A stretch of DNA of 63,098 nucleotides, the filler included. It is 3 parts of 3 records of this genome, joined end to end, with 100 filler letters (N's around TTAATTAATTAA, not from the genome) between each part and the next. Parts side by side here need not be neighbours in the genome. Positions count along the whole stretch, not along the records: positions 26,445 to 55,897 come from SRR31156797_11401; 2 more parts are not named here. The stretch is one strand, 5' to 3'. The position numbers and the translations under genes were made by a program. Every line of letters begins with the position of its first letter. Position 1 is the first letter of the stretch. A model generated the notes under the pieces. That model was not told the DNA's origin. It searched no databases and worked only from the letters and a program-made list of their open reading frames with translations. This document shows, one piece after another, positions 26,445 to 55,120 of the stretch.

Positions 26445-26474
26445 ATTCGAACACGCGGCCTACGGATTAGAAGT
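26445..26474 (-). other. att core: 3' fragment of tRNA-Arg(UCU), anticodon loop through T-loop
   Basis: Minus strand ACTTCTAATCCGTAGGCCGCGTGTTCGAAT; anticodon TCT and GTTCGAAT; no 5' half; ~135 bp downstream of integrase. Confidence 0.85.
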
Positions 26475-26499
26475 ATCCACGCCGTTAACAGTTCACCAC

Positions 26500-26597
26500 A
26501 TGTGAACGCTCAATGATAATGAATTTAGTGACTTATGCAAAACCACAGCTTCCAAGTGTGGTCAGCGCGTTGTTGTCAACCGTTAAGCGTTCACATT
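26500..26597. repeat. Inverted repeat, putative integrase arm-type sites
   Basis: ATGTGAACGCT (26500-26510) and AGCGTTCACAT (26587-26597); related CCGTTAA..GTTCAC copy near 26482. Confidence 0.55.
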
Positions 26598-26608
26598 TGG
26601 AAGTGTTA

Positions 26609-27706
26609 TCATCGTGCAAGGAGCGCTCCACTCACGTCTTCAGCAACCAGGTGAGAGTATATCATGGTGGTCGATACCGACCGGTGACCGAGCAAGGATT
26701 GTACCTCAGCGGTTGACCGGCCTTCCCTCAACAAATCGGTAGCCACAGTGTGTCGTATGGCATGTGGTACAAAGTTAGGATCATCAATGCCCATCTCATC
26801 CCGTGCCTGCCTGAAGCACTTACTGACAAAGTTCACATCGAAGGGGTAAATCACCCCGTCCTTGTCAGGCACCACGTTGTCCAGAATCTTGAATACTTTG
26901 TCATGCATAGCCAGTGTACGGATGGCTTTACCCTTGGCAATATCTGCGGTAATCATAATGGTCCGACGCTGCATATTGATGTGCCGCCCGAACCTGATGT
27001 CCAGGATCTCTCCGATCCGCATTCCGGTGTACCATGCAATGGTCAAAACCTCAGCCACCTGTTTACGCATGGCCGTACTCTTGGGTATCCGACGATCACG
27101 CAGAAGGATCTGCCGCACCTCATTGAACTCAGCCTTACTGATCAGACGATCACGCCTGAACTGGGTCTCACTGACCATCACCTTCTTGAAGTTTGGGAGC
27201 TTAGGGATCAGGTCCTCGTCGTGGCAGGCCATCAGTATAGTCTTCAGGCTCACCATGTACCGGTTGATCGTACCAGGGCGGCGATACCTGGGGCACTCCT
27301 TGGTCCCGATGTTCTCGGACTCCAGGTGCCGCTTCAGTTGCTTCAGTTTGCTGGTGCTTATGTCCATGCAGCGGGGATTACCCAGGAATTCACTGGTCTG
27401 CTGTACCCGGCTGATGCTATCCCTTTGATGTATCGACTCATCCCCCCAGTCGCCCGCCTTGAAGGAATCCAGGGCCTGATTCAAGGTGATGTCCTCCCCG
27501 AATATTTCAAGTTCAACCGCCTGCTCAAGCTGACTGTCGATCTCATCCTTCTTGTCCCGGACTGCCTGCCGTCCAGTTGCAATATCACTGGTCTCAAGAG
27601 TCTGGAACACACGCTCACCCTTGTACTTGAACTGGATGACCAGGTTGCCGGGTACTCCCTCATTGTTGAAGTATTGATAGATTCCATATTCAATTCTCTT
27701 GCGCAT
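26609..27706 (-). CDS. int: Tyrosine recombinase / phage integrase
   Basis: TGMRIGE (R), K, HAIRH, LLGH, TTMIY catalytic residues. Confidence 0.95.
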   Translation of the reverse strand: MRKRIEYGIYQYFNNEGVPGNLVIQFKYKGERVFQTLETSDIATGRQAVRDKKDEIDSQLEQAVELEIFGEDITLNQALDSFKAGDWGDESIHQRDSISRVQQTSEFLGNPRCMDISTSKLKQLKRHLESENIGTKECPRYRRPGTINRYMVSLKTILMACHDEDLIPKLPNFKKVMVSETQFRRDRLISKAEFNEVRQILLRDRRIPKSTAMRKQVAEVLTIAWYTGMRIGEILDIRFGRHINMQRRTIMITADIAKGKAIRTLAMHDKVFKILDNVVPDKDGVIYPFDVNFVSKCFRQARDEMGIDDPNFVPHAIRHTVATDLLREGRSTAEVQSLLGHRSVSTTMIYSHLVAEDVSGALLAR

Positions 27707-28034
27707 TAAGGATCTCCTCTATTGCTTTAATAGTTTGCTTACCTTTTGGGGTAAGATATACACAGGTAAACCTGCGGTTCATGGGATCAGGAACCTGGGT
27801 TACAAGCCCCAGTCCCGTCTCCCTCTCTAACTTCTTGTTATAGAACTTGCCCATATCCCTCAGATGTCTACTCACGCTGCCTGATAACAACCCCGTGGTA
27901 TCCTTCAGTTCTTGCTGATGGATACCATCGTTGAGTGCAACGGTTAACAAGAGGTCAATCTTCTGGGCTCCGATTTCAGGGTTAACATTTTGTCTGATCC
28001 ATGTGATTGCTTTGGCGAAGTTCTTCAGGCTCAT
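27690..28034 (-). CDS. MarR-like winged-helix regulator
   Basis: QQEL...SGSVSRHL...GLV...DPMNRR...VYLTPKG. Confidence 0.85.
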   Translation of the reverse strand: MSLKNFAKAITWIRQNVNPEIGAQKIDLLLTVALNDGIHQQELKDTTGLLSGSVSRHLRDMGKFYNKKLERETGLGLVTQVPDPMNRRFTCVYLTPKGKQTIKAIEEILNAQEN

Positions 28035-28056
28035 TTTTATTTCCTTTATATGTATG

Positions 28057-28260
28057 TCAACATGCCTCCCCCCATGGTACTAACATGTCGCTGGTGGTTT
28101 GGTCACAGACCCCAATGAGACTCACTGCCTGGGCCTCTTGGTCGGGGGTAAGGTCTGACCATTCAATATAAATGTCGGTGTTCTTATACTGGAGATACAC
28201 ATAACACTGATCGTTAACAACTACAATATTACCATCGTCATCTTGGATATGGACTTCCAT
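28057..28260 (-). CDS. Phage hypothetical protein (acidic)
   Basis: 67-aa ORF co-oriented with neighbours. Confidence 0.6.
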   Translation of the reverse strand: MEVHIQDDDGNIVVVNDQCYVYLQYKNTDIYIEWSDLTPDQEAQAVSLIGVCDQTTSDMLVPWGEAC

Positions 28261-28369: not shown

Positions 28370-28951
28370 CTATTGGGACTTTGTGCGGGACAATTGAGAC
28401 TTTGTGTGGAATGGATTGAGAGCGAACTGCTCGTACCACTCCTCCTCAATGCGGAATTGTTTCTTGTAGGGGATAGGATGAACCCAAAGAAATGAGAGCC
28501 GCACAGTGTCACCTATCTTGCGGCATATCTCAAAGGCTATAGATGTTGTGGACCCAGTCACATAGAAGTTTACAATTGCGTGTGCTACAGGGGGTAAGAT
28601 GTCATAGAGGTGTTCGCCAGTTATGTTCCGGCGGAATATGGGATTGATGAAAGGCTCGGAGTGAATGATCAGGCTATCATAGTCAACCAGCATGACCACC
28701 TGGCCGTTCTGTTTATCCTGTACCTCTTGCTGTACGTCCTGTACCTTTTCCAGAAAATCATAATCTGTATGGAGTAGCTTACTGAGTTTAACTCTGGCCT
28801 CACCCGTAGGTACGGACGTTCCATTCAACCAGCGGTAAACCGTTGATTTTGTAACGCCACAGTGCTCACGGATGTTGCCAACACTACGCTCATGTTCATA
28901 CATCAGGCCTCTTATACGCTTATGCAACTCCATAGTCCGATTGTATAACAT
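28370..28951 (-). CDS. XRE/Cro-CI HTH regulator with PAS-like C-terminal domain
   Basis: CGVTKSTVYRWLNGTSVP HTH; VMLVDYDSLIIH...NITGEHLYDILP. Confidence 0.75.
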   Translation of the reverse strand: MLYNRTMELHKRIRGLMYEHERSVGNIREHCGVTKSTVYRWLNGTSVPTGEARVKLSKLLHTDYDFLEKVQDVQQEVQDKQNGQVVMLVDYDSLIIHSEPFINPIFRRNITGEHLYDILPPVAHAIVNFYVTGSTTSIAFEICRKIGDTVRLSFLWVHPIPYKKQFRIEEEWYEQFALNPFHTKSQLSRTKSQ

Positions 28952-29088: not shown

Positions 29089-29370
29089 TTAAAACTCATA
29101 GGGCACCCCCATCATATGGGTTAGATCATTAACCAGGACCCGACTGTACTCTTTGGTTGGCATTTTGCCTTTCCTGGGGAGAGGGACCCCGTGTTCCTTA
29201 TAAGTGTGGATGACCAGCCAGCACCAATTGGTGAAGCACCAGTGGGACGCGCAGTTATCATGCTGTTCAAACATGGTGTCTATCCAGGCGTCACGGGACA
29301 CCGGGCCGAACGTGATGCAGTCCCATGTGTCAGGTAAGGTGTCGATCCTTCCTATTATCTTAGCGGCCAT
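29089..29370 (-). CDS. Phage early hypothetical protein
   Basis: ORF with GGAGG RBS. Confidence 0.65.
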   Translation of the reverse strand: MAAKIIGRIDTLPDTWDCITFGPVSRDAWIDTMFEQHDNCASHWCFTNWCWLVIHTYKEHGVPLPRKGKMPTKEYSRVLVNDLTHMMGVPYEF

Positions 29371-29533
29371 TGTTGATCCTCCGAATTTCGTTAAGCTTCC
29401 ACCATAAGGGCATGGCGTAAATCTGATTCATTGTGATCTGATTGTGGACCTGGCGTTGCTCCGGAGTGGTGGGCCTCTTGCCGTATGGTTCGATCATAAA
29501 GGCATACTTCATGGCTCGCTGTTTACTTGTCAT
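29360..29533 (-). CDS. Phage early hypothetical protein (57 aa, not in ORF track)
   Basis: GAGGAGG RBS; MTSKQRAMKYAFMIEPYGKRP...NNGR*. Confidence 0.55.
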   Translation of the reverse strand: MTSKQRAMKYAFMIEPYGKRPTTPEQRQVHNQITMNQIYAMPLWWKLNEIRRINNGR

Positions 29534-29641
29534 CGGTGTGATCCTCCTCGCTGTTTACAATGAGTGGTCCCAGGGCCAGGACCCCAAAGATTCCGGCACA
29601 TATGAGGGTTAAAACGATGTGTGCTACCATGTGCTGTTCTC

Positions 29642-30013
29642 CTATCTATAATGCCAGACGGCGTTGAATTCGTTATCGTTTAGGTCCTCGGCCCAGTCAG
29701 GTCTTTGGTTGCAACCGGCTGTGGTACACCAGCCATCCCAGGTGTTAACCTGATGGGCACAATATGTGGTGGGGATCACCCGGTAGCCCCGGTTTAAGCA
29801 GAACATGCGGCCAGATTCCTTATGGGTTACCGTGACATAAGGCAGGCTGTCCCGGTATCGGTTCTCCCGGAAGGCCTTAAGCTGCCGATCATACCGATAT
29901 TTGCTGATCTTCACGGCCCGGCTGGTGCCCTTGATTTTCATGTAGTAGTGACCGCAGGCGTAGGCGGTCAGGCTGTATGTCTGATTGGTGTGTATGTCCT
30001 TGGATGGCTTCAT
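29642..30013 (-). CDS. Phage early hypothetical protein
   Basis: ORF, AGGAG RBS, ATGA coupling with upstream gene. Confidence 0.65.
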   Translation of the reverse strand: MKPSKDIHTNQTYSLTAYACGHYYMKIKGTSRAVKISKYRYDRQLKAFRENRYRDSLPYVTVTHKESGRMFCLNRGYRVIPTTYCAHQVNTWDGWCTTAGCNQRPDWAEDLNDNEFNAVWHYR

Positions 30014-30345
30014 GATGGCTTGTTCTCCTGTACGGTTTTAATGATCCAGGCAGGCGATGCTATCCGGCAGTGTTCCAGGGTGTTATAAGACTGGGTGTCA
30101 TACCAAAAGGCATCTTGCAGACTCCTGATATGCTGTTCATTCAAGGTGTTCCATCTCTCGAAATCCTTTTGCGTTTCGATCTTATGGAAGAGTTCATCCA
30201 GGCGTTTTTCCAGGCGGTTGTGGATGGGGATCAAGGCCCTGGTGTGCTTAAATTGGTCGGTCATGTCATTACTCCTCATAGTCGTAGTGGTTATCGTAAA
30301 CAATTTCGGTGTCTGATCCTGCTGCCAGTTCTTCAAGATACTCAA
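30010..30345 (-). CDS. Phage early hypothetical protein (start uncertain)
   Basis: ORF; internal AGGAG RBS before MTDQF may mark the true start. Confidence 0.55.
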   Translation of the reverse strand: MSILKNWQQDQTPKLFTITTTTMRSNDMTDQFKHTRALIPIHNRLEKRLDELFHKIETQKDFERWNTLNEQHIRSLQDAFWYDTQSYNTLEHCRIASPAWIIKTVQENKPS

Positions 30346-30443
30346 TCATAGGGTTCTCCTTGTGTATTGGTTATGGGTTAAGCGCTCAGACAGACCCATC
30401 ATGGATCTCATGGTAGGCCTGCGCTCAAGGCTCAACACCAGGA

Positions 30444-30923
30444 TTAGAACACCTCCTGGACTTTGCGTTTTGCCGTTGAGATTTCCCCATGAACAGCCAT
30501 GGAGTAGGTCAACCCAGCGTCACCCACTATGATATGCTCATGGAGCTGAATCCCCATGACGTGACATGCTGCGGCTATGGTCTCAGTTATCTTGATATCA
30601 GCAGTGCTGGGCGCAGTGTCCCCGGACGGGTGATTGTGTCCCAGGATCAGGGATGCGGCGTTGACATTCAGTGCCTCTTTGATGATTTCACGGGGATAGA
30701 CAGCGCAACTGGTCAAGGTGCCCTGGAACATTTGTTTGACCATCAGGCTGCGGTTCTTTGAGTCCAAGAAGATCACATAAAAGGCCTCATTACCTTCATG
30801 CTGTGACATAAGGGGTTTCAAGACGTTGTACAGGGTGTCAGGGCTGCTGATCACCTCACCATGGACGGCTTCATTGACGCGATCTGCCAGTTTACCGCTA
30901 AGGAGCGACTGCTTGAAGTTCAT
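30444..30923 (-). CDS. RadC-like JAB-domain protein
   Basis: EAFYVIFLD, GTLT...VYPREI, HNHPSGD..PS.AD, HIIVG; GGAGG RBS before ATG 30923. Confidence 0.9.
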   Translation of the reverse strand: MNFKQSLLSGKLADRVNEAVHGEVISSPDTLYNVLKPLMSQHEGNEAFYVIFLDSKNRSLMVKQMFQGTLTSCAVYPREIIKEALNVNAASLILGHNHPSGDTAPSTADIKITETIAAACHVMGIQLHEHIIVGDAGLTYSMAVHGEISTAKRKVQEVF

Positions 30924-30939
30924 GCGGATACCTCCCGGT

Positions 30940-31584
30940 TTAATGTTGGACGAAAACAACGTACTTGTGAGTTTGGCAGGCCTTACATTCAACGCCACAG
31001 GTCAGGGTAGTTCGGGCCAGGCCGTATGGGCAGACTTTCGCCCGGAACCTCTTGGCCTTTGCGATCACCTCTGCGTGGGAGCCATAGTTAATAGAGCCGT
31101 CCGGTAGGATAGATTCCACGATGTTAAACCCCGTGGCCGGGCGGTATGGGCTTTTGGTATAGGCGAAGAACTTGATAGAGGGATAGACCATGTGAATCCG
31201 GAAGGCGATTTCCTCCCAGGCGTCAGCATAGGTCTGATTGTAGAAGTCGCCGGACTCATGAACGCGCACGGCCTTGACACCATACTTTTCAACGCTTTGT
31301 GTGATCAAAACGGCCATCCGGTCGGCGAAGGCATCAGGTGCCAGCGTGGCTTGATAATTGCGTTCGCGGCAGGCTACAACCGCAGGGTATCGCTTTTCGG
31401 CCTTTCTGGCATAGCAGGTTGCGGCGCATTGCTCATGGTTCGGGCAGGTCGTAACAGCAGGTAGGTTCCAAATCAGAATGCCATGGCTTAACTTGCTGTT
31501 ACCAAGGGAAAGGGAAATATCGTGATTGTTGGGTGTAATGGCCTTGACATAATTGCCAGACCGCTTGATTTTTGTTATGGTCAT
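30940..31584 (-). CDS. GP88-family (radical-SAM-like) phage protein
   Basis: GNSKL, WNLPAVTTCP...C...CYA, VRVHESGDF, YTK. Confidence 0.75.
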   Translation of the reverse strand: MTITKIKRSGNYVKAITPNNHDISLSLGNSKLSHGILIWNLPAVTTCPNHEQCAATCYARKAEKRYPAVVACRERNYQATLAPDAFADRMAVLITQSVEKYGVKAVRVHESGDFYNQTYADAWEEIAFRIHMVYPSIKFFAYTKSPYRPATGFNIVESILPDGSINYGSHAEVIAKAKRFRAKVCPYGLARTTLTCGVECKACQTHKYVVFVQH

Positions 31585-31658
31585 TGCGATTTATCCTTGT
31601 AGTGGGGATGGTCATGGCACCGGGTAATACTTGGCGGTTTTACTCGGTGCCGCTTTCG

Positions 31659-32141
31659 TTAATATTGCAGGCCTAATCCTTCGATATCGTGCTTGAATGA
31701 CGCCATGAGAGCTGGCAGGCGTTCATTTAGTGATATCAGGTTGATATCGCCGGGCTCTGCATCGGGCCAGACAGCCGATTTCCGGGCAAAGTCGAGGTTC
31801 CCTTGATCGATCCAATACATGGTATTAGCGATGTAGTAGAGTGGGCCGTCTGTGGATGTCATGTGCCATTTCAAGAGATGGCTTAACTCTGGGAAAACCC
31901 GCCGGATAACGTCATGCTGACACCCACAGGCGTTAAGCCAGGCAAGGTTATTATTGGAAAGTCTCACCGTGGGTTCGCCAGGCTGCCGGTATTGTTCATA
32001 GATCTCAGCCGTTATGGCGAACGAGTTGTGACCATTGCCGCATTCATCGTCATGTCTGATCTCAGCAACCACAAGGGCAAGCTTGCCGTCAATGATCGTT
32101 TCCCGGCTGTGTTTCTGTGTTTGACGTTTGATTGTTTCCAT
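31659..32141 (-). CDS. Phage early hypothetical protein
   Basis: ORF with AGGAG RBS; DDECGNGHNSFAITA, CGCQHD, LKWH. Confidence 0.7.
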   Translation of the reverse strand: METIKRQTQKHSRETIIDGKLALVVAEIRHDDECGNGHNSFAITAEIYEQYRQPGEPTVRLSNNNLAWLNACGCQHDVIRRVFPELSHLLKWHMTSTDGPLYYIANTMYWIDQGNLDFARKSAVWPDAEPGDINLISLNERLPALMASFKHDIEGLGLQY

Positions 32142-32153
32142 GATGTTTTCTCC

Positions 32154-32540
32154 TTATGCTGCGTATCTTAGGCCTGACAGGAAGTCCGGCATGTAGTCGT
32201 CCTCTTCGATGATCGACCAGAACCCATAATCTGAGCCGTTCCCAGGGTGTGCCCCAAAGTCGTAACCGGCAGGCGCGTAGACATTCAGGATGTCAAAGAG
32301 TTCATAGAGCAGATCGTGGGCGTCCTCAGAGTTCCACCATTCGCTGTCGTCGTCCTCTATGGCGTAGGCCGGAATCGGGCCAAACGGGTTGATTATCATT
32401 TGACAGTATTCGTTAGTGTGCCGGATCGCTTCCATGAAGTCTGGTATCAAATCAGCGTTGCGCATGGTGCCACTAATCAGGGTGCCCTTGCATTCGCTTA
32501 GGTAAAAAGTGTCAGTATTGGGATTGATTTCGTATTTCAT
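32154..32540 (-). CDS. Acidic phage early protein
   Basis: ORF with AGGAG RBS; D/E-rich; FGAHPGNGSDYGFW. Confidence 0.7.
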   Translation of the reverse strand: MKYEINPNTDTFYLSECKGTLISGTMRNADLIPDFMEAIRHTNEYCQMIINPFGPIPAYAIEDDDSEWWNSEDAHDLLYELFDILNVYAPAGYDFGAHPGNGSDYGFWSIIEEDDYMPDFLSGLRYAA

Positions 32541-33095: not shown

Positions 33096-33660
33096 ATGGA
33101 ATCTTAATAAAAGAACATATTAAATTGCAAGTGACTATAATCATTTGGTTAATGTGTGAGTTGTTGAATGTGTCATAATCGAATGGTTCACAATATGAGC
33201 GTTATTAACAAGGTGTGGTCGAGGAGGCAAGACAGCATGAAAACAGTGGGCTGAAACCCCGTGCCGGACAGATGGTCATTACCCAATGGCAGGATGAACG
33301 GCAGGTCAACCCGGCGATGATCAAAACAGATATTCACACATTGATACACATGTGTATCATGTCAGGAAAACACCTCGATAACGTCCCATGCCATGCGTCC
33401 CACCTCATGATGCACCCAATGACCGACGGATTGCCCATCCGTAGGCCCTTCAAACCCCTTGTGGGCAGCAGGTCAGAGCTAATTGATACCACGCTGTGGT
33501 GCAAAATGATTGAATCCACTCTGTTTCAGCACTAAAAAAGGTACACGGGGGGTATGCGCGGGCCTGGATATTAATCCTGGGGCTTCAAATTTTTGTGCCA
33601 AAATCTCGGGGTTCAACGGCATGATAACCAGAGACCTCCATGAGCCGTGGGTTTGAGCGC

Positions 33661-34111: not shown

Positions 34112-34136
34112 CTCCCTCTTAAGTGAGGGAGTTAAT
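34112..34136 (-). promoter_or_regulatory. Phage single-subunit RNAP promoter (T3-like), copy A, phiOR-like position
   Basis: ATTAACTCCCTCACTTAAGAGGGAG; repeated at 52001-52024. Confidence 0.7.
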
Positions 34137-34190
34137 GTTCCCGAAATCATTGGTAAAACCTACTGATAAAACCAAATGCTAATCAAGGAC

Positions 34191-34280: not shown

Positions 34281-36020
34281 CTAAATTCTCCAAAGGTCTA
34301 CTGAATTTTGAGGTTGGAAGCCTGCCAGGTTCTGAAGGTGGACCTTAAGTTCCTGTTCCAGTAGTTTCTCCTGCTGTGCTGCCATTGCCATCTTGGTGTC
34401 ACGGCCCATGGAATCGGTCCAGTAGGCTACCGCGATGGCAAGAACGTCGATCATATCGTCATGCTTGAGAGCCCCACGATCCTTTGTGAGCCTCGTTAGC
34501 TGATAGAAAGCACTGTAGGCCAACCGCCGTTCAACCGTCACGTTGGACCCAATGTCCTCCCTTATTATTCGCTCATCGACGATAAGACGATGTTGGTTCA
34601 TCACGGGCTCCAGGGTGTCGATTATACGGGCTTCTTTCTGTTTACTGTGATTCACTTCCTCAAGCTTACAAGTTCCGTGGATGCGCTTCATATGGGGCTG
34701 TATCAGCTTGGTAAACATGCCGTCACCAAAGTTGGATTCGATAATGGTGTGCTTCACTTTGTAATGCGCAGCCAGGGCACACAGGGCCTTGAGAGTTTCA
34801 TCATCGTAGCCACCTGCGAATCCACCCAGGGCTAACAGGAAGAGATTTCCATGAAGCTGGGCCACAATGGCATAGGTGGTCTCATCAGATCCCCGGCCAG
34901 AAGGGTCAATCGCCATGACAATACCCTCATAGTCGGCATACTGGCTGTCGATATAAAGAGGTCGATACCACTTGTCACCACTGAAACCGACATTCGGAAT
35001 ATCCTTGGCCTGCTGCTGTGGACCCGAGCCATACTGAATGCTGATTGGTCCCTTGCCCTTACCCAAGTTGGTAACAATGAGGTCGCTTGTCTTAAGGGGA
35101 TAACGCTCCTGGTCACTCAATGACGTATCAAGCTGGAACTGAAGGGCAAACCCACTGCGGCCATAACTGGCTTCACGGTCGGCCAGCTCAAAATCATTGA
35201 ATCGTTGGGGGTCTGTTGCTCGACCTGCAAGCTTGGGGTCCCCGGTAAGACGCTTGATTAGCGTAGGGCTGAGGCATCCATGGTAGGCTGCAATTTTGTC
35301 CTCGGAAGGGTAACGACTGGGCCATATACGGGTCTCATACTGGAGTTCTCGCAGCTTGTTATAGATGGATTCTTCGGACTGAGGAGTCCCCAGAAAGGTG
35401 ATCCTCGGGTTTCCCTCGGGTATGATCAAGGCGTTGAACTCGGATACCGCTGTGATCAACTTGGAGCGCATATCCTGGGTTGCACTATTGGATGGAACCT
35501 CCACATCATCAGCGATAACATGATGGGCACGGCCACCAGTGATCTGACCATTAATACCAACGGCCCGGACACTCGCCTGCTGTGCCGCTTTCGCAGGGCC
35601 TACATCAAATTCAACCATAGATTCCCGCTGATCCGGCCTGGGAATCAGGTGTCGGCACATGGGAATCTCTTTGATCAACCTTAATGTAAAGATTGTGAAG
35701 GCATCGGAACGCTGTTTACTGGCTGATACCACAAGGAATTGGAGCTGAGGGTTGCGTAACAGTCGCCAAATCACGAATGCCGCTGTGATCCACGACTTGC
35801 CACAACCCCTGAACGCTTGTATGATCTGCCTTTTAGGTCCGGCCTGGAGCCAATAGGCGATCTCGAACTGCATGGGGGTCGGCGAGGGTAACCCCAAGAA
35901 CTTCCAAACGTAAGCCAGAAAGTTCCTGAAGTCGTCAAGAAATGGGTTCCCACTGATGACCGTTCCATCAATGGGATTCCGATCCCCTTTCTTGAGCCCC
36001 CCGATATTATGGGGCTGTAT
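34281..36020 (-). CDS. Terminase large subunit (T7 gp19-like), probable AUA start
   Basis: AFRGCGKSWIT Walker A, IADDVEVP, AIDPSGRGSDET, HDD; frame open upstream of TTG 35897 through DDFRNFLAYVW to ATA 36020. Confidence 0.95.
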   Translation of the reverse strand: MQPHNIGGLKKGDRNPIDGTVISGNPFLDDFRNFLAYVWKFLGLPSPTPMQFEIAYWLQAGPKRQIIQAFRGCGKSWITAAFVIWRLLRNPQLQFLVVSASKQRSDAFTIFTLRLIKEIPMCRHLIPRPDQRESMVEFDVGPAKAAQQASVRAVGINGQITGGRAHHVIADDVEVPSNSATQDMRSKLITAVSEFNALIIPEGNPRITFLGTPQSEESIYNKLRELQYETRIWPSRYPSEDKIAAYHGCLSPTLIKRLTGDPKLAGRATDPQRFNDFELADREASYGRSGFALQFQLDTSLSDQERYPLKTSDLIVTNLGKGKGPISIQYGSGPQQQAKDIPNVGFSGDKWYRPLYIDSQYADYEGIVMAIDPSGRGSDETTYAIVAQLHGNLFLLALGGFAGGYDDETLKALCALAAHYKVKHTIIESNFGDGMFTKLIQPHMKRIHGTCKLEEVNHSKQKEARIIDTLEPVMNQHRLIVDERIIREDIGSNVTVERRLAYSAFYQLTRLTKDRGALKHDDMIDVLAIAVAYWTDSMGRDTKMAMAAQQEKLLEQELKVHLQNLAGFQPQNSVDLWRI

Positions 36021-36256
36021 TAGTCCTCCGCACCTACCGTCAGATCATCCAGGCTAAAAGGAATGTCAAAATCATCATCAGATCCGGTCAAAGGGTTGCC
36101 CGGCATTTCCGTATCCACGTCAACACCGTGCCTCTGAGCAATCGAATCAATGAGCTTTCGGTCCTGTGGGGAGGCCTCTCCGTTTGCTATCCGCTTCTTT
36201 AGGTCACGCAGCATGTCATCGTAAAGGTCTTCCACAAAGTCGCACCTGTTGTCCAT
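36020..36256 (-). CDS. Terminase small subunit (gp18-like)
   Basis: Position; LKKRIANGEASPQD. Confidence 0.75.
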   Translation of the reverse strand: MDNRCDFVEDLYDDMLRDLKKRIANGEASPQDRKLIDSIAQRHGVDVDTEMPGNPLTGSDDDFDIPFSLDDLTVGAED

Positions 36257-36573
36257 TAAATGGTCTCCTTAACCTTGAATTTAAACCAACCGGTCCACTG
36301 CAAGATGCCTAACTTCACGATGCCACGGCCCGGCCAGTCAACATACACGCCACGTTTGTCCCCATTGAAGGACCAAATGTAGTCAACCACGGTGACGGTC
36401 GCTCCCCAATCACCGGTTGCACTGTTCCAAAGAGTGGCCTTATCGCCAATCTTAAAGATCCGTTTACACCAGGCCATGAAGGTGGCGAACAGTTTGCCTA
36501 ATTCAGCCTTGAATGCGTTAAGAACCAACAGCCCAATGGGTGCCCATAGCCAGGTGTTAATCATTGTTTCCAT
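36256..36573 (-). CDS. Small membrane protein with MscS-like TM3/beta-domain pattern
   Basis: One TM then ELGKLFA...RIFKIGD. Confidence 0.55.
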   Translation of the reverse strand: METMINTWLWAPIGLLVLNAFKAELGKLFATFMAWCKRIFKIGDKATLWNSATGDWGATVTVVDYIWSFNGDKRGVYVDWPGRGIVKLGILQWTGWFKFKVKETI

Positions 36574-36574
36574 G

Positions 36575-36781
36575 TTATTTATCTCCTTTTCTTGCGTTAA
36601 GTTTGTCCTGAATGCTCACATAGATGTAGATGATCTGGAGGATCAACACTGCGGCACCCAGGATCTTGCTATAATTGTCTATGATCAGACCCAATGTCGT
36701 CACGAACGGTTGCGGTATAAGGGATTTCCAGCTCATGTCCATCGCGGCCCGGCAAAACTCTTTCAGGAAATTCATGATCAT
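36575..36781 (-). CDS. Putative holin
   Basis: ATGA-coupled start 36781; hydrophobic ILGAAVLILQIIYIYV plus basic C-tail; T7 gp17.5 position. Confidence 0.55.
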   Translation of the reverse strand: MIMNFLKEFCRAAMDMSWKSLIPQPFVTTLGLIIDNYSKILGAAVLILQIIYIYVSIQDKLNARKGDK

Positions 36782-37176
36782 GAAGGTGTTGTCGGCCACT
36801 TGACATCGGTGGGGTAGCCTGCCTGGGTGGTGACATCCCTTAATGCCTGCCGGTAGGAGGCCCAATCGGTGGTCTGATAGAACTCATTCCCCTTGAGATA
36901 TCTCCAATCGCTGGAAGACAGCAGGACATCCCGTTGTTCCTTGACGTGAGCCTTGAGAGCATCCAGGTGCCCGTCTTCATCAAATGTAAACGTGATGTTC
37001 CCATCTTCATCAACAGTGGTATTCTGCGGGCCAGCCCATTGTGGATAGTCACCAAACGCCTCAGTGATCTCATCCTCGGTGAGTTCCCGCACCATGTTCG
37101 GATCATCCAGAATTCTTACCGCAGCAATCTCATCATGGGCTCCGACTACAGTAGATCCATATATAAATAGTCTCAT
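36778..37176 (-). CDS. Tail fibre assembly chaperone
   Basis: RDVLLSSSDW...WASYRQALRD...YP..VKWP. Confidence 0.8.
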   Translation of the reverse strand: MRLFIYGSTVVGAHDEIAAVRILDDPNMVRELTEDEITEAFGDYPQWAGPQNTTVDEDGNITFTFDEDGHLDALKAHVKEQRDVLLSSSDWRYLKGNEFYQTTDWASYRQALRDVTTQAGYPTDVKWPTTPS

Positions 37177-38448: not shown

Positions 38449-38449
38449 G

Positions 38450-44146: not shown

Positions 44147-44154
44147 AATTGCTC

Positions 44155-44631
44155 CTATTCAGTACCGGTTTTGGTTTCACCATCTTCATATGCTCCAGCT
44201 CCGGCAGCAGCGGCACCTGCTAATCCACCATAGAGAGTACCTTGGGCAGCGGCCATTTGTGATGCATAGGAAGCAGAGTTAGCGGCTGATTGATTCTCAA
44301 CCATGGCGTTGGCTCCAGCGCGTGTGGATTCAATGATCCCTTCATCATGCTGACCCTGGATCTCAAGGGTGGCATACTGCCTCAGCGTACTGTTCCCACC
44401 TACGCCTGCATCTGCGGCTCCAACTTCGGCTGCGGCCTTTTGCCTCTGAGTGTCCTGCTGATTCTTGAGTTTATCGAGTGCAGCCTGCTTGTTGTTCTGC
44501 TGGATCTGAAGCTTTGCTGCGGCATTCTGGACGTCCAGGGCATCATCGGCGCTCTTCTTTTGCTGGACGGCTGTTGCGGCACTACCGGCCACACTGATTA
44601 CGGCCATAGCGATAGCTGCCGGGTTACACAT
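44155..44631 (-). CDS. Internal virion protein B (gp14-like)
   Basis: MCNP start, Ala/Gln-rich, AGVGGNS. Confidence 0.8.
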   Translation of the reverse strand: MCNPAAIAMAVISVAGSAATAVQQKKSADDALDVQNAAAKLQIQQNNKQAALDKLKNQQDTQRQKAAAEVGAADAGVGGNSTLRQYATLEIQGQHDEGIIESTRAGANAMVENQSAANSASYASQMAAAQGTLYGGLAGAAAAGAGAYEDGETKTGTE

Positions 44632-45097
44632 CAGCCAGCCTCTTATGAAAAGCCTGGAAGGTCACCCCACTAAGCTTGAAGGGGACGTCTATAAACTTAA
44701 AGCCAAGCCTCTCGATCCATCCTACTGATGGGTTATTTTCGATGGACATGATGTTGCCCAGGCCGTAGGGATACTCGATAAGCCATTGGTCAATAAACCC
44801 CTTGGCTGTTACATTGAGTTCATCCATGGCCTCATAAGTGGCTGGTGTACCAAAGGCCCAGATCACGCCGAATTCTTCGTGGACACTATGGGGTGTGCAT
44901 CCGAAAAGCCCTTCAATCTGCCCATCAATTTCGATCACATAGCAGACATCCGACTCAAGAGCCTCTTCAATGATCTCCGGCATGTCCACTGCGGGTCTGA
45001 TCGCCATGAGTTCCTTGATATCATTGGCTCTGAGCTTCATGCTCCTGGCTTCCTCCAGATCAGCATATGTAAACTCTCTTGTAATTACTGTTGTCAT
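44624..45097 (-). CDS. gp13-like protein (GNAT-like fold)
   Basis: LRANDIKEL, GLFG, N...W..RLGF. Confidence 0.75.
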   Translation of the reverse strand: MTTVITREFTYADLEEARSMKLRANDIKELMAIRPAVDMPEIIEEALESDVCYVIEIDGQIEGLFGCTPHSVHEEFGVIWAFGTPATYEAMDELNVTAKGFIDQWLIEYPYGLGNIMSIENNPSVGWIERLGFKFIDVPFKLSGVTFQAFHKRLADV

Positions 45098-47406
45098 AAT
45101 GCTTGTCCTTTCTGAGTCAACAGGCCTTCATAACTCACTGCTGCAATCTGCACCGGTAAGTAGCTATCACTGCTGATCTTTATGGATGTGGTTGTGTTGC
45201 GGCCCCTAACGCCCACCTTCTCGTTGCCATCAAAAAGTTGGGTCTTGCCGTAGGCCATCTTGCCGATAACGTTGTTGGTACACTCAGATTCCCTGGCATC
45301 ACGGCCTTCGTTCTGGACCACCACCTTGAAGTACCCACTCTTAGCGTATTGGATTGTTACACTGCGGACCTGCAGCCGGTTATTGATGAGTGCTGTGCCC
45401 TTCTGATTCTTGATGTACCAGGGACTTAGGGTAGTCCAGGCGTCGTACTTGAGGCCCACCATGTAGTTACCGGTGCCTTTCACTCCTGACAGGGTAATGG
45501 TCTTGTCGTTATTGGCCTTATAGTTGAGGATAGCCCGGCCATACGTCGCGTCGATCACGATGATATTATCGCTGGTCACAGCATAAGGTAAGGTAAGGGT
45601 AGCCGTTCCGGCATCGCTGTTGTAATTGGTGCTGGTGGCCTGGACAAGCTGATCTATCCGCACATTCCAATCAAAGTCACCATCGGATATACAGCCGGGA
45701 CTTAGGGTCACCATCCCCAGGCCGGTCTCAATGATTTGGATGAGGACAATGTTGCCGTCAATGTATGCCATCGTCGCGATATCATTCTCAAAGGTCCACT
45801 GACTAAATGCCGACTGCGCCTTGACATCATCAATGGTCTGGGATCTGTAGACCCACAAGCTGTTTGGCGTGGCATCGCTGTGCATGATGATCATACTGTT
45901 CGTAGGCAAGGCCAACATCTGGATAAAACCGTCAGGTATGAGCCTTGGACAATGGGAGCTAACATTGGCTGCAGCCTCCATTACATCATTGAGGATGCCC
46001 TCGTACTCCATTAGATCCACATAATTGTTCTTGGGACTGAGAAAGAAACAGGAGGCTCCACATGTCGCTGTCTGGGAATCCTCTGTGGTTTCATAGGTGG
46101 TGCCGGGGTCGATCTGAATTGTTTTAGGCGTCAGGGCGTCATCATTTGAATGCACCGTGAACTGCTCCCGATCACTGTAGAGTATGAGCTTACGGCCCAG
46201 GATGTCAGTCTTATGGAGATTCGTGACCTGCCGTGTATTAGCACTCTCATCAATGGGATCATTGTCGAGAACCGAAAGGCTGGACAGGCTGAACAACTCA
46301 AAGTAATCACCTGGCTTGCTCATCACAAAAGTCGTGGCCGTCATGAAGCACAGGCGGTTCCGGTAAAAGAACATATGCTTGATGGAGTCATCAATGAAGC
46401 TGGGCAAAGGGTTCGTATCATCAGATCCGCACTGCCGTTCACCCCACGATAACGGTGTGAATACGAAAGTCCCATTACTGGCCCGAACGAGGGCATGTGG
46501 CATCGTGTCTGCGTTGATCTTATAAGTGGACCCTGGTTTACAGCATTCGGTCCACACTTCGTCCACGGTATAGATGACCCAATATTCATCGTTATCGGCT
46601 TTATCTGGATCTCCCTCAATATGGACGATATCACCGAGCGATGGCTTATAGTCCTTATCCTGTACGGCATCCTCAAGGGTACTGAAACTCTGATATCTGG
46701 AGGTTACACCGCCCGGCGTGGTTGTTACTGTGGTTATTGTCAGATCGTACCTATATGTCGTGACCCCCTCCACAGTATTTGTAGACCGGAAGACCAATGT
46801 GCTTGTTATGACTACACGAGTGCCATCGGTTTTCGTGGTATCGCTAATAAGCTTATCGGTATATACAGGCTGCTCCGCGCCGTATTCCTTAAGAGTGGTC
46901 TCTGTTGAGGTGTAGGCCCCTGAACCACTGGTGGTATCACTGGCCATAGCGGGGCTTATGTCCGACCGGCTGATAAACGTGTAGTCGGCAACCGTCAGAG
47001 CATTAAAGAGGATATTGGGGTTTTGGGGTTGATTGATCAGATACTGGGTGCGCACGGCTGCATCCTCGACATAGCTGTTGTCCACGAAGTTCATCCGACC
47101 GTACACCACGTTCTGCTTCACGCCCGCTTTATCCCATACGGTAATGTAGCCTTGCGACCCAATCATGTAGATATAGGACTCATTGGCATCACGGTTGATA
47201 GAGCCCCAGTAGGCACCAGCAGTATCCACATTGTCGAGCATCTTGGCAACCCACCTTGTTCCCGGCCTTTTGTACAGCCCATCGACAATCGTGGCGTCAA
47301 AGTTCATCTGCTCCGAATGTTGGGTTTCAAGGCGCATGGTTTCTGCCTGCTGGCTTTGACCATTGTAGAGGCCACCCAGGGTCCTGGTCACCAGGCGGCT
47401 ACTCAT
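45094..47406 (-). CDS. Tail tubular protein B (gp12-like)
   Basis: GQSQQ, GLYKRPG, TMPHALVR, NPLPSF, FFYRNRL, QSAFSQW. Confidence 0.95.
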   Translation of the reverse strand: MSSRLVTRTLGGLYNGQSQQAETMRLETQHSEQMNFDATIVDGLYKRPGTRWVAKMLDNVDTAGAYWGSINRDANESYIYMIGSQGYITVWDKAGVKQNVVYGRMNFVDNSYVEDAAVRTQYLINQPQNPNILFNALTVADYTFISRSDISPAMASDTTSGSGAYTSTETTLKEYGAEQPVYTDKLISDTTKTDGTRVVITSTLVFRSTNTVEGVTTYRYDLTITTVTTTPGGVTSRYQSFSTLEDAVQDKDYKPSLGDIVHIEGDPDKADNDEYWVIYTVDEVWTECCKPGSTYKINADTMPHALVRASNGTFVFTPLSWGERQCGSDDTNPLPSFIDDSIKHMFFYRNRLCFMTATTFVMSKPGDYFELFSLSSLSVLDNDPIDESANTRQVTNLHKTDILGRKLILYSDREQFTVHSNDDALTPKTIQIDPGTTYETTEDSQTATCGASCFFLSPKNNYVDLMEYEGILNDVMEAAANVSSHCPRLIPDGFIQMLALPTNSMIIMHSDATPNSLWVYRSQTIDDVKAQSAFSQWTFENDIATMAYIDGNIVLIQIIETGLGMVTLSPGCISDGDFDWNVRIDQLVQATSTNYNSDAGTATLTLPYAVTSDNIIVIDATYGRAILNYKANNDKTITLSGVKGTGNYMVGLKYDAWTTLSPWYIKNQKGTALINNRLQVRSVTIQYAKSGYFKVVVQNEGRDARESECTNNVIGKMAYGKTQLFDGNEKVGVRGRNTTTSIKISSDSYLPVQIAAVSYEGLLTQKGQAL

Positions 47407-47975
47407 GGGCGTCTCCTTCTTGCTCTCATTACATCGGCAGCATCCAGGAAGTTGTAATCACCGGCGTTGATCTCCCGGCTGACCATTGTGGCATAGGCCT
47501 GCTTCTCATCGTCCAGCGTCAGCTTCTCTGTGGTGTCGGACCCCAGGACCATACTCTGGAATTTCCTTGCGTTTTTGATGGCAATGTAAGACCGGGCGTA
47601 ACTGGGCAATTCGTCGAAGTCCAGCATCAACACAATCTCGGCATACATTGTGCCTGAGAACTTATAGGTATGATCCCGGCGGTTATAGAGGAAGAGCCCG
47701 CGCTGAACCAAATGGTTCTCCACCGGGTCCACGAATAATGTGTTGGAGGGGATCTCGATCTTACCGGTGGATGAGTTAACCAGGAGAGGGTAATTGTACT
47801 CCTTATTGAAGGTCCACCCACGCTCCTGGACAGCTCTCGACTCAGATGTGAGCATACGGTATGCGGTTGCAGCGTCTGTGGCACCGGTCGTATCAAGTGT
47901 GTTTATCGGTTCTTCACCTATGATATCCAGGCAAAGGTTAACAGCACCCAGCTCGGTCATTAAGATTGTATCCAT
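47403..47975 (-). CDS. Tail tubular protein A (gp11-like)
   Basis: TELGAVNLCL..IGEEPI, VQERGWTFN, FDELP. Confidence 0.95.
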   Translation of the reverse strand: MDTILMTELGAVNLCLDIIGEEPINTLDTTGATDAATAYRMLTSESRAVQERGWTFNKEYNYPLLVNSSTGKIEIPSNTLFVDPVENHLVQRGLFLYNRRDHTYKFSGTMYAEIVLMLDFDELPSYARSYIAIKNARKFQSMVLGSDTTEKLTLDDEKQAYATMVSREINAGDYNFLDAADVMRARRRRP

Positions 47976-49976: not shown

Positions 49977-49982
49977 ATGTGG

Positions 49983-52000: not shown

Positions 52001-52024
52001 CTCCTCTCAAGTGAGGGAGTTAAT
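52001..52024 (-). promoter_or_regulatory. Phage single-subunit RNAP promoter (T3-like), copy B, heads the virion operon
   Basis: ATTAACTCCCTCACTTGAGAGGAG, intergenic between ligase and structural genes. Confidence 0.7.
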
Positions 52025-52034
52025 GTGCCTGAAA

Positions 52035-53093
52035 TCATTCATAATTCCTGATGCAGATCCCAACTGGATTACCCTGGGGCACACCATCGGCACTGGTATC
52101 GCTGTACCTGACAGTCAACTGCTCACCACAGAACTGCCTCACCAGCTCATCGCTAATGAGGCGTCTCTCTTTGGCTCCATTAGGTACAACATCGAATTCG
52201 AGCCAGGCGTCAAGTTCACCAGGGCTGGTCTCGGTGGGCTCTACCACGCAGGTCCATATGATACAGCCATCGACATCGCGCTTATGGCCGACAATAGTGA
52301 ACTCCTCATCCTTGAAGCCCTTGCGTTTCATGAGATCGTAGGTCCGCTTCCCCTGGTATTGGGACTCGGGGTTCCTGATCATGATGCCTTCACCACCCTG
52401 GCCTATGATCGAGTTGTAATACAGGTCGATCCCGGACTCGGTGGGGCAGGTAAAGGTCTGGACCAGGCGTAGAATCATGGAGGGCTTGCAGAGGGCTGCA
52501 TTGAGATGAGCCAGGCGTTTCTTGAAGGTCCCAGGCATGATCGTGTCGTAGATCCAGTATTCCATCTCTGTGGCTATGCCTTTGGATTCGGATCGGCGTA
52601 CTGCACCGCTGATCTCCTGGAGGCTGTACTGGCGGTTGAATAGCTCACCATCCCAGGTTTCACCCGGAGACATGAACCGGCCAAGCTCCTTAACGATATG
52701 ACCCATACTGGTAATCGGCTTACCCTTGCGGGTGATCAGCTCGATGTTCCCATGATTATCGCAAAGGGCCAGGCACCGGATACCATTGAGTTTTTCCTGG
52801 ACTGATACCGGGTAATCCACACGATCCACATCATAGGAATGGGCCAACATAGGCTTGATGATCGCAGGCGGGTCCTCACCGGGGAGATGATAGCCTTTGT
52901 CCCGCTGCTTGTTGATCTTACTGTTGATCTCAAGTTCGACCTGCTGCCAAAACGTCCGGTTACTTTTGGGCTTAACAATCCGGGATTTAGTCTGTGTTTT
53001 ACCACCAACCACACCATAGCTTACCCGGTAACCGCTTACGGTGTCCTTGATGATCCACTCACGGTTGCCTTTGATCAGTCGCACACTACTCAT
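52035..53093 (-). CDS. ATP-dependent DNA ligase with WGR-like N-terminus
   Basis: PMLA, QEKLNGIRC (motif I), WDGEL, EGIMIR, LMKRK; start MSSVRL overlaps upstream stop. Confidence 0.9.
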   Translation of the reverse strand: MSSVRLIKGNREWIIKDTVSGYRVSYGVVGGKTQTKSRIVKPKSNRTFWQQVELEINSKINKQRDKGYHLPGEDPPAIIKPMLAHSYDVDRVDYPVSVQEKLNGIRCLALCDNHGNIELITRKGKPITSMGHIVKELGRFMSPGETWDGELFNRQYSLQEISGAVRRSESKGIATEMEYWIYDTIMPGTFKKRLAHLNAALCKPSMILRLVQTFTCPTESGIDLYYNSIIGQGGEGIMIRNPESQYQGKRTYDLMKRKGFKDEEFTIVGHKRDVDGCIIWTCVVEPTETSPGELDAWLEFDVVPNGAKERRLISDELVRQFCGEQLTVRYSDTSADGVPQGNPVGICIRNYE

Positions 53094-53580
53094 CAATGAC
53101 CTCCACAAGCGTGGGGTTAACAGGCGCACCGTAGGCATCGGTCGTGTCGTAACTCAGCTTGGCTTTCTTACCGACCACATCCTTGCCGAACTCTTGATCC
53201 GGGAACACCTTGAACCGGTAACCACTGGTCAGGGCACAGATCAAGACCGGATGTTTGATCCTGGCGTCCCTGACTTTCATGATCCGTTCAATGGGGAATA
53301 GGTCATCGGTAACTGCGGGAGTTTCAGGGACCGGGGGCTCATCAACCGTTCCTGTATCCTGGGGTTCATCCATAAGCTCGTATCCTTCCAGTATTTTCTT
53401 GTTGACCGCTTTCTCAGCGTCGGTCCGGGCCAGATCGGCATTGTCATAGGATCTTGTTGATTTTCTCAGCTTACCTCCATCCCAGCCATAGCGTTTGGTA
53501 AGGACATTACCTTCCAGCTCCATGATGTACAGGTAGTCTTTGCCATCACGTAGATCCTTCAGTTTCCAGGTGGTTGCCAT
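53086..53580 (-). CDS. WGR-like plus OB-fold-like protein; ligase paralogue lacking the catalytic domain
   Basis: RYGWDGGK...KKILEGY; GKKAKLSYDTTDAYGAPVNP. Confidence 0.65.
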   Translation of the reverse strand: MATTWKLKDLRDGKDYLYIMELEGNVLTKRYGWDGGKLRKSTRSYDNADLARTDAEKAVNKKILEGYELMDEPQDTGTVDEPPVPETPAVTDDLFPIERIMKVRDARIKHPVLICALTSGYRFKVFPDQEFGKDVVGKKAKLSYDTTDAYGAPVNPTLVEVIDE

Positions 53581-54371
53581 ACGTTCACTTCCTTTCGTGT
53601 CCAGTTGTATTCACCGTTTTGCAACATCCGAGCTACCCTGGCGTTGATCAGGGCGTGGCTCTCGTTGAGTTCACGGCAAAGGTATTGTTCATAGGCGAAG
53701 ACCCATTCGGTCGCCATGTACTCCTCGACCACTCGTTCCCACATGTCGCGATGCCACTGGGGTCCATAGGGTCCAGGGATCTCATTCACAATGTTCCAAG
53801 CCTTCTGGGGACCAATCTGAGGACAGCCGTAGTAACCATCGGTCCGATCACCGGCCAGGCACTGCATGTAAAAATAGCGGTCTCCCTCCAGGGGGCTAAC
53901 CTCCCGGACCCACTTGTCTTTGTTCCAGTTGAAGTGGAACCCTGGGATCTGCTCCAGGTCCTTATCGAGGGTGGCTATGACGTACTGGCCCGGACTTTCG
54001 GTAGCTATCAGACCCATCACGTCGTCAGCCTCAAGACCCTTGTACATTCTGGATTCATAGCGAGGGTGATTCAGGGCGTACTCGCGGAGCATGGGGTGTA
54101 GCTTGGGTTTCTCGACATCAGAGCGCTGATGCTTGTATGTAGGCATGACGCCGTACCTGAAGTTCTGAGGATGGGTCACACAGAGGATTACATTGCGGGC
54201 ATTCGTGGAGCGTTGCAGGTGGTTTACAAACCAGTCGAACTCTTCGACCGCCTTGTCGTAATCCACCTCAATGGTGATGTTCGCGGGGTTCCAATCATTC
54301 ACGATCTCATTGCCAACACTGAATTTGAAAAACAGGATGTCGGCATCAATGAGGATAGTGTGGGGCGCTAT
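53559..54371 (-). CDS. 5'-3' exonuclease (T7 gp6-like), probable AUA start
   Basis: LEADDVMG, DKDL.QIPG, GDRTDGY.GCP.IG; conserved LIDADIL lies upstream of the tracked GTG start. Confidence 0.9.
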   Translation of the reverse strand: MAPHTILIDADILFFKFSVGNEIVNDWNPANITIEVDYDKAVEEFDWFVNHLQRSTNARNVILCVTHPQNFRYGVMPTYKHQRSDVEKPKLHPMLREYALNHPRYESRMYKGLEADDVMGLIATESPGQYVIATLDKDLEQIPGFHFNWNKDKWVREVSPLEGDRYFYMQCLAGDRTDGYYGCPQIGPQKAWNIVNEIPGPYGPQWHRDMWERVVEEYMATEWVFAYEQYLCRELNESHALINARVARMLQNGEYNWTRKEVNVWQPPGN

Positions 54372-54601
54372 ACCAGGCCTTTTGACCAGTCCTGAACCAG
54401 AACGATCATGGTGTCCAGGCTGACATTGTGGTGAACGATGATTTTACCGGGCTGCTCCAGGGTCAGGGAATGGTTCCCTTTGATTATGCTATGGATGTCG
54501 ATGGGGCCTCTGATATCCAGATGTACCTTACAGCCAAGATGATTTTTGGCTACAGCACTTGCACATGTGGTAATATGATTGATCTTAGTTCCAGCTTTCA
54601 T
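54368..54601 (-). CDS. Phage hypothetical protein
   Basis: ORF with AGGAG RBS. Confidence 0.6.
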   Translation of the reverse strand: MKAGTKINHITTCASAVAKNHLGCKVHLDIRGPIDIHSIIKGNHSLTLEQPGKIIVHHNVSLDTMIVLVQDWSKGLV

Positions 54602-54655
54602 AAAGTTCTCCTTTGTTATCCATGTTGGGTTCCATGCAATCCCGGACGTATGGCA

Positions 54656-54886
54656 TCAGGCTCCACACTGAACCTCTTTCGGAATGATCGCGCTGATCAC
54701 ATTCAGGGATTCACGGGCCTTGTCAGCCTCAAGGTAGTGACATTGGGCTTTCTTCCTGAGTTTATCAGCCTTGTCATCAGCCTCGTTGCCCTGGATGTCC
54801 TGGTCAGCGATGAACTGTTCCAGGTCGGTTTTCATTTTGTTGAAGGGCTTCAGGATGGACGCAAGTGTTTTGTTGGGTTTGAACAT
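54656..54886 (-). CDS. Phage hypothetical coiled-coil protein
   Basis: ORF with AAGGAG RBS. Confidence 0.65.
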   Translation of the reverse strand: MFKPNKTLASILKPFNKMKTDLEQFIADQDIQGNEADDKADKLRKKAQCHYLEADKARESLNVISAIIPKEVQCGA

Positions 54887-55120
54887 GGTGATTCTCCTTG
54901 GTAGTAGTTGGTTGAACTTATGGGGGATTTGGAATGGTCTCCGATTAAATCAATCTTCGAGCCATAGAAAAAGATTAAAAACTAAGGGTTTCCCTGATAG
55001 ACATCTGTTTAAATGAATGATACGAATTAAGCAGAATTAATCGCTAATGTTATATTTTTTGCTTTAAACTTTTATATTTAAAGACCAATAGAAAGAATAT
55101 ACCTATCACCATACTGGCTC

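Follow-up and report, generated by a model that had tools for sequence, protein, structure and literature searches.

Does contig SRR31156797_11401 carry a temperate T7-like prophage, and in which host would such an element reside? The contig (26445-55897, 29,453 bp) is the middle one of three that, joined by N-linkers at 26345-26444 and 55898-55997, make up the window, the whole 63,098-nucleotide stretch analysed. A first-pass annotation had read 26445..54925 as a temperate T7-like prophage in a probable Desulfobacterota host, with gp6 to gp19 in T7 order followed by a non-coding genome-end region, early genes, two regulators, an integrase and a tRNA attachment (att) site. We conclude, at a probability of roughly 0.6, that a temperate T7-like phage sits in the tRNA-Arg(UCU) gene of a Desulfobacteraceae bacterium and that the contig covers about three quarters of it. 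Gene content and order, the att sequence, host-family markers at both contig ends and synteny with a provirus that bears a phage RNA polymerase (RNAP) are the direct observations behind this reading; the steps by which the element would integrate and excise are given conditionally.

Gene families were called with PHROGs and Pfam on 36 open reading frames (ORFs) of the contig. On the minus strand these run from an exonuclease, a WGR-domain protein and an ATP-dependent ligase through portal, scaffold, capsid, tail tube and nozzle to gp13-gp16, a T7-type fibre, a chaperone and TerL with its T7 RNase H-like domain. Early genes follow (GP88-like, RadC/JAB), then an XRE helix-turn-helix (HTH) regulator, a MarR regulator, a tyrosine integrase and part of a tRNA-Arg(UCU) gene. 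The homologs of T7 gp6-gp19 are collinear with T7 and all lie on one strand, and the order first described for these genes, the early genes, the two regulators, the integrase and the att site is borne out. Among the same ORFs none matched RNAP, single-stranded DNA-binding protein (SSB), endonuclease, primase/helicase or DNA polymerase (DNAP), and the exonuclease is the sole member of a T7-type replication module on the contig. An endolysin was recognised neither among these ORFs nor among the scanned ORFs of the relative described next.

The remainder of the replication module is present in the nearest relative, an undescribed IMG/VR provirus of 39,916 bp (IMGVR_UViG_3300005589_000752, here G001). 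Its TerL is 78% identical to that of the contig, the highest among 80 IMG/VR loci retained after a TerL scan (next 60%), and integrase and RNAP scans of IMG/VR returned G001 alone. IMG/VR classes it as a provirus that is 98% complete, and its sequence was found at 78-99 kb within a 211,975-bp metagenome contig. G001 starts with RNAP (phrog_414, 1e-176) and ends with int, with SSB, endonuclease, antirepressor, primase/helicase and DNAP ahead of the exonuclease. From the 77-amino-acid (aa) ORF onward the contig is collinear with it: 23 of the 41 predicted contig ORFs have a counterpart, at a mean identity of 49.5% (capsid 80%, portal 70%, integrase 54%, MarR 57%), and the shared genes are full length, with no frameshift seen. 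Because G001, which runs from RNAP to int, has a block of about 12 kb without counterpart on the contig, the contig is evidently a fragment of a permuted T7-like genome, about 12 kb short, that carries about three quarters of it. The prophage call over this interval stands for gene order; that RNAP, which defines the group, is missing from the contig had been overlooked. An RNAP-less T7-like lineage, which the lack of RNAP ahead of int had suggested, was rejected, as RNAP normally follows att and G001 has RNAP there. G001 differs from the contig in having the block from RNAP to DNAP and two tRNAs, in the apparent lack of an XRE gene, of RadC and of the attI module described below, and in its promoter repeat. 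Nine public capsid relatives were found at 70-91% identity, three of them on contigs of 87-352 kb.

The integration module identifies the element as a T7-like phage of the temperate MarR-int type. The integrase, whose catalytic motifs are intact as read by eye in the sequence, stands next to the MarR-family regulator, and the latter matches 35 phage records, mostly of pelagiphages and cyanophages and including P-SSP7 and HTVC019P (32-35%). The tRNA-Arg(UCU) part starts 134 bp after int; the terminal 30 nt of the contig match intact public tRNA-Arg(UCU) genes exactly, and the identity begins at that very base. With the tRNA part next to int, and with G001 opened between int and RNAP, att lies between these two genes and within a tRNA gene. 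Permutation through a site just downstream of int, as had been proposed, agrees with the RNAP-to-int order of G001 and with the order MarR, int, RNAP of HTVC019P. We found one att copy alone, with no second copy near 55 kb, and the whole tRNA gene was not found anywhere in the window.

Host assignment had been thought to depend on correct binning. To assign the host, we compared two families of Desulfobacterota, the phylum to which the att searches were confined: the Desulfobacteraceae, taken as the family of genome G003, which includes a metagenome-assembled genome so titled (n = 161), and a second family, that of genome G143 (n = 105). The att 30-mer was exact in 16 of the 161 Desulfobacteraceae genomes, or in 15 of 160 once G003, the seed of the search, is set aside, and 39 genomes had it with at most two mismatches; none of the 105 G143-family genomes had it exactly, and 35 had it within three mismatches. 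Across a phylum sample it was exact in 1/301 genomes, namely G003. The last kilobase of the phage contig had matches in 52/161 Desulfobacteraceae genomes versus 1/105 of the G143 family (2 and 4 candidates scored per genome), and the lone G143-family match falls in a different part. Several Desulfobacteraceae genomes carry a partial second copy of tRNA-Arg(UCU), which is therefore a common integration site; partial copies from other islands occur in both families. We conclude that the contig's own att, attI and intron markers point, without recourse to binning, to a Desulfobacteraceae host. An anaerobic host in the Desulfobacterota thus holds on marker grounds, and the reliance on the bin does not.

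The bin itself looks mixed, because the flanking contigs resemble different families. The preceding contig (1-26344) matches four G143-family genomes over 12 kb at 75-84% nucleotide identity, and its regulator, which has relatives at 86-89% (one labelled Deltaproteobacteria), finds its best genomes within the phylum in the same family. The first kilobase of the following contig (55998-63098) was found at 82-83% in three of five Desulfobacteraceae-family genomes and in none of four G143-family genomes; a 942-aa protein of that contig, at 25% in both families, gave no separation. Matching att to the host tRNA-Arg(UCU), the check originally suggested, accordingly has two outcomes: exact identity in Desulfobacteraceae, and 3-4 mismatches in the three of five checked genomes closest to the preceding contig in which the tRNA was present. 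By this evidence the bin appears to mix two families of Desulfobacterota.

At the other end of the contig, beyond the interval first annotated, positions 54925-55897 are host-type DNA, consisting of attI, a cassette and an intron end. The segment 55080-55144 matches sequence 513-523 bp upstream of intI in three of five genomes, plus many copies far from intI, and conservation stops at the GTT core in 11 of 17 host copies, the position and boundary of an attI site. There is no complete integron, as intI is not beside attI and phage ORFs occupy its expected place. A 186-nt module query gave 4-9 matches per genome in five complete or near-complete Desulfobacteraceae-family genomes, and several promoter-plus-attI modules in genomes of this family lie away from the single intI; the module and the intron end are both absent from the G143 family. 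The AT-rich stretch that follows opens with the 7-nt core and closes at the intron with five complementary bases, the visible part of an inverse core. Six host loci share the terminal 28 nt, with a YADD reverse transcriptase in four and Rfam group II matches in five. These loci give the intron its group II identity and its orientation, and in two genomes they lie in intI-linked arrays. An Rfam scan of the contig had 0 matches; by our own reading of the fold, the intron end forms two hairpins resembling domains V and VI. We therefore read the layout as attI, a cassette and an attC split by a bottom-strand intron.

This layout has precedents. IIC-attC introns insert into the bottom strand of attC and so run against the direction of the cassette gene (PMC3001079), and attI/attC and cassettes are reported in phages (PMC9892861); attI, cassette and bottom-strand intron orientation are likewise present here. 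The difference from the reported phage-borne integron parts is that a solo host-family-type attI without intI stands beside T7-like genes. The att and intron-end patterns had no match in IMG/VR. The 17-nt dyad motif in the promoter part of the host module (window 54983) recurs upstream of the G001 marR-int operon (38044), a weak hint of a host regulator site and of a similar host for G001. An atlas search with the cassette protein had its best clusters, unnamed, at 0.94; a Pycsar effector was not accepted, at an atlas score of just 0.82 and 16% of members.

Is this module part of the prophage, or does it mark where the prophage was cut? We favour its lying inside the prophage, because a second att is missing, the genes show no damage, the total length is plausible and G001 has its variable region at this place. 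If it does lie inside a working prophage, integron cassettes would have a route of movement by a T7-like phage. More tentatively, an intact prophage may have taken up a solo host promoter-plus-attI, at which the host integron integrase could load or swap cassettes, with the phage spreading cassettes and the attC-homing intron between sulfate reducers; this is possible, though we would doubt it on present evidence. The membrane-protein and proline-rich cassette, of no known family, is possibly such cargo, for defence against other phages.

It is unlikely, in our judgement, that the contig is a truncated prophage relic. The RNAP-DNAP arm would then have been lost or rearranged, the attI-cassette-intron unit would be host chromosome abutting the remnant, and the element would need a helper to replicate or to express its late genes. 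Although the arm of about 12 kb is absent from the contig, fragment, intron and arm together would come to about 43 kb, a total that the size range of the relatives accommodates. Every copy of the host-type module that we saw is chromosomal and dispersed, as a relic would have it, whereas the second att copy was not found near 55 kb, the genes are full length against G001 and near-identical pieces occur in the run of a second study. Decay could also be read from TerL (36020) and the exonuclease (54371), which lack a canonical start codon and apparently begin with an ATA that overlaps the upstream stop. However, TerL frames have no ATG/GTG/TTG start in 3/82 relatives and no ATG in 15/82. Because relatives share this trait and the ATA/stop overlaps fit coupled translation, start-codon decay is disfavoured, and the ATA starts look like damped, coupled translation.

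We regard as improbable that the contig is free or extrachromosomal phage DNA, binned by chance, with the 30-mer as attP. From the int side attP and attR are indistinguishable and the contig has no host junction, but a host-type attI, a cassette and a host intron at the other end would be acquired more easily by a resident element, and the nearest relative is integrated. A host identical with the organism of the preceding contig, as the bin implies, is largely refuted and very improbable: the contigs were binned together at similar GC (0.49 and 0.51) and, with a short crossover region, a mismatched 3' arm might in principle be no obstacle, but the closest genomes (75-84%) differ from the 30-mer at 3-4 places, exact 30-mers number 0/105, and the attI module and intron end are absent there.

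Several observations weigh against an integrated phage of Desulfobacteraceae. For this element we saw neither a junction between phage and host nor attL or RNAP. Relative to G001, the integrase has 166 amino-acid versus 99 synonymous changes; the capsid and TerL count in favour, their synonymous changes exceeding the amino-acid changes. No T7-type TerL was found in sets of 301, 161 and 96 Desulfobacterota genomes, with a positive control run, and therefore no named genome ties the lineage to Desulfobacteraceae. A search of clustered regularly interspaced short palindromic repeat (CRISPR) spacers in the 161 genomes, with 20 of 28.5 kb, found no spacer match, the best hit being 87% over 38 nt, with two candidates scored per genome and no repeat arrays at the five loci checked. 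The tetranucleotide correlation (0.56 versus 0.52) did not separate the families, which leaves the proposed composition check uninformative.

The abrupt contig ends would follow from the assembly. The contig is identical to one Logan contig of run X1 (29,453 bp, depth 16.3), which may be its source and would then be no independent evidence. Both ends break off after 28-30 nt of a repeat; with a Logan word size that we take to be 31-mer, both ends would fit assembly breaks if the tRNA and the intron recur in the sample. The pieces in the second study's run were at low depth, with 8 of 58 at 99% or more; run X3 had no matching piece, an absence that carries no weight. Run X1 also holds a 39,441-bp contig at depth 41.9, possibly another phage, that shares 35 nt (5 differences) with 51686-51720.

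For an integrated phage we propose the following cycle, modelled on known relatives. Host RNA polymerase would transcribe the early genes and marR-int, and Int would act on an attP placed between int and RNAP, recombining it with the anticodon loop of the tRNA gene. Once integrated, the prophage would run tRNA-RNAP...gp19-early genes-marR-int-attR, with RNAP severed from early transcription, and MarR, perhaps together with the XRE protein, would keep the lytic cascade off, as HTVC019P and LUZ100 suggest. Excision would rejoin int to RNAP, which would use the two repeated promoter sites. The RNAP-DNAP arm should lie on another contig beyond the group II intron, and the intron would be part of an insert of host type, attI plus cassette, placed in the variable region that separates DNAP from gp6.

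Two candidate promoter sites, identical over 18 nt, occupy the positions of two of the three G001 repeats; the longest repeat in 30 shuffles was 13-17 nt. We read them as candidate phage-RNAP promoters. A T3-like specificity, alike by eye, was rejected: the ungapped likeness to T3 phiOR was 14/23, not above background. A sigma-70-like site at 28060-28033 overlaps the end of the 67-aa ORF, and in a sigma-70 and terminator scan the contig-wide totals were not above chance. A prophage would keep one copy of the direct terminal repeats, and the conserved segment 33544-33639 may be the terminal-repeat region. The non-coding genome-end region first described is thus upheld for this segment and contradicted by a plus-strand ORF inside it (33647-34000); the ORF is acidic and has no family match, and G001 has tRNA-His and tRNA-Tyr calls there.

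How divergent is the lineage? We built a TerL tree of 59 rows from 90 near-full-length rows, collapsing IMG/VR rows above 85% identity. The window and G001 were sisters (100% by the Shimodaira-Hasegawa-like approximate likelihood ratio test, SH-aLRT) inside a 14-row clade without cultured phage. An integrase follows TerL in 4 of the 13 clade relatives, and the other nine loci have less than 5 kb of DNA there. GenBank phages reached a TerL identity of at most 56% among the matches listed, and a GTDB scan with a two-sequence TerL alignment, a weak query of just two patterns, had no match. By its terminase, the element is thus placed in a separate, uncultured clade; the divergence that had been claimed, and the terminase phylogeny suggested as its check, agree. 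Autographiviridae are defined by a single-subunit phage RNAP; as RNAP is not on the contig, membership in this family would rest on the sister provirus.

Temperate T7-like phages with MarR and integrase adjacent, upstream of RNAP, were reportedly described by Boeckman et al. in 2022. HTVC019P-type pelagiphages and P-SSP7 have the MarR-int-RNAP design, the MarR family and tRNA integration in common with the contig, which differs in its separate TerL clade and its anaerobic host. Pelagiphage attP lies between int and RNAP and integration is in tRNA genes, tRNA-Arg for HTVC120P (parts of bioRxiv 10.1101/410191); in most of the pelagiphage integrations described it is the 5' part of the tRNA that is restored, whereas here the 3' part adjoins int. 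Pseudomonas phage LUZ100 likewise has MarR and integrase adjacent and upstream of RNAP, and in the accessible text of PMC10134795 marR-int is cotranscribed and MarR is proposed as a lysogeny switch. LUZ100 stands at 53.5% (TerL) and 44% (portal), and the contig has an extra XRE regulator and GP88-like, RadC, WGR and ligase genes. ProddE (MZ666938), a T7-like phage of Desulfovibrio desulfuricans, a species for which phage release is cited in a portion of PMC12724379, has int, a repressor and RNAP. It resembles the contig's lineage in its Desulfobacterota host and in an integrase upstream of RNAP, but has a CI-like repressor and an excisionase and no MarR match, where the contig's lineage has MarR; 10 ORFs are shared at 37%. 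A TerL clade of ProddE, the window and G001 was rejected (approximately unbiased test, p = 0.00017, with P-SSP7 left out and the group chosen after the tree was seen), and the element belongs to the ProddE lineage neither by TerL clade nor by a CI-type repressor.

The implied novelty of an integrating T7-like phage in an anaerobe does not hold: integrases occur in 625/1143 marine T7-like populations in the sections of PMC12361551 available, and ProddE, from an anaerobic Desulfovibrio, is in GenBank. The element is a genuine but divergent addition to the temperate T7-like phages already known and would work like HTVC019P and LUZ100. Its value lies in giving sulfate-reducing bacteria another temperate T7-like lineage, the second and independent of the first, tied to Desulfobacteraceae by three on-contig markers. 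In the literature searched, parts of PMC12361551 included, just one population there, with a Desulfobacteraceae host guessed by k-mers, made such a link; G001 was not found in the supplements of that paper that were searched, of which one file was unreadable. The element supports the view of widespread, old integration among T7-like phages and leaves it unchanged.

Table. Features of the phage contig, in window coordinates.
Position	Strand	Feature	Basis
26445..26474	-	att core: tRNA-Arg(UCU) from anticodon loop to T-loop (3' part), truncated where the contig ends; would be attR in a prophage	Sequence match
26609..27706	-	Tyrosine integrase	PF00589 (1e-26), phrog_1; 54% to G001
27690..28034	-	MarR-like regulator of integrating T7-like phages	phrog_9665 (2e-23)
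28057..28260	-	67-aa ORF before marR	43% to a G001 ORF
28370..28951	-	XRE-family HTH regulator	PF01381, phrog_3; atlas HTH_3 clusters at 0.95; not found in G001
29089..32540	-	Early-gene cluster: small ORFs, RadC/JAB (30444-30998), GP88-like (30940-31584), 160-aa and 128-aa ORFs	PF04002 (4e-41), PF17338 (5e-26); three ORFs 60-67% identical to G001
33544..33639	-	Conserved non-coding segment, genome-end region	71% over 98 nt to G001, E 1e-5
34113..34138	-	Candidate phage-RNAP promoter after TerL (phiOR position)	18 nt identical to copy at 52026
34281..36020	-	TerL, probable ATA start overlapping TerS stop	phrog_38 (6e-107), PF22530; aligned with G001 ATG
36020..37176	-	Probable TerS, two small membrane-type ORFs, fibre chaperone	TerS by position; 65% to G001
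37186..47975	-	Tail tube A, nozzle B, gp13, gp14, gp15 (by position), gp16 with LPD38 domain, T7-type tail fibre	PF17212, PF25675, phrog_308, PF24072, PF18857, PF03906
48043..51575	-	Portal, scaffold, major capsid protein	PF12236, PF05396, PF21703; 70, 46, 80% to G001
52003..52026	-	Candidate phage-RNAP promoter before structural operon (phi6.5 position)	Repeat
52035..54371	-	gp6 exonuclease (probable ATA start at 54371), WGR-domain protein, ATP-dependent DNA ligase	phrog_107, PF05406 (weak), phrog_114
54368..54886	-	Short phage ORFs of 77 and 76 aa, beyond which the contig has no phage-type gene	77 aa: 54% to G001; 76 aa: phrog_2380
54968..55144	+	Desulfobacteraceae promoter-plus-attI module without intI; crossover core 55138-55144	
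55138..55869	+	AT-rich gene cassette (GC 0.33)	Membrane-protein ORF 55185-55853; proline-rich 47-aa ORF 55642-55785
55870..55897	-	3' end of Desulfobacteraceae group II intron, breaks contig	

Some further features were seen along the contig. The GP88-like gene of the early region, which stands there with RadC/JAB, also occurs in G001 and in two further loci, and an anti-defence role for the two genes would be a guess; PADLOC had no match for the early genes or the cassette and gave just weak HTH matches. The 76-aa ORF had no GenBank phage match. The ATP-dependent ligase and the WGR-domain protein (52035-53580), whose N-termini are alike, follow gp6 both here and in G001, whereas the T7 ligase is early. 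The tail fibre gene has 21-nt (heptad) repeats at 37841-37968. On the preceding contig, 3058-12396 encodes a surface protein of 3112 aa that combines Ig-like repeats with a repetitive tail rich in threonine; a PorV/BamG-like barrel gene comes next.

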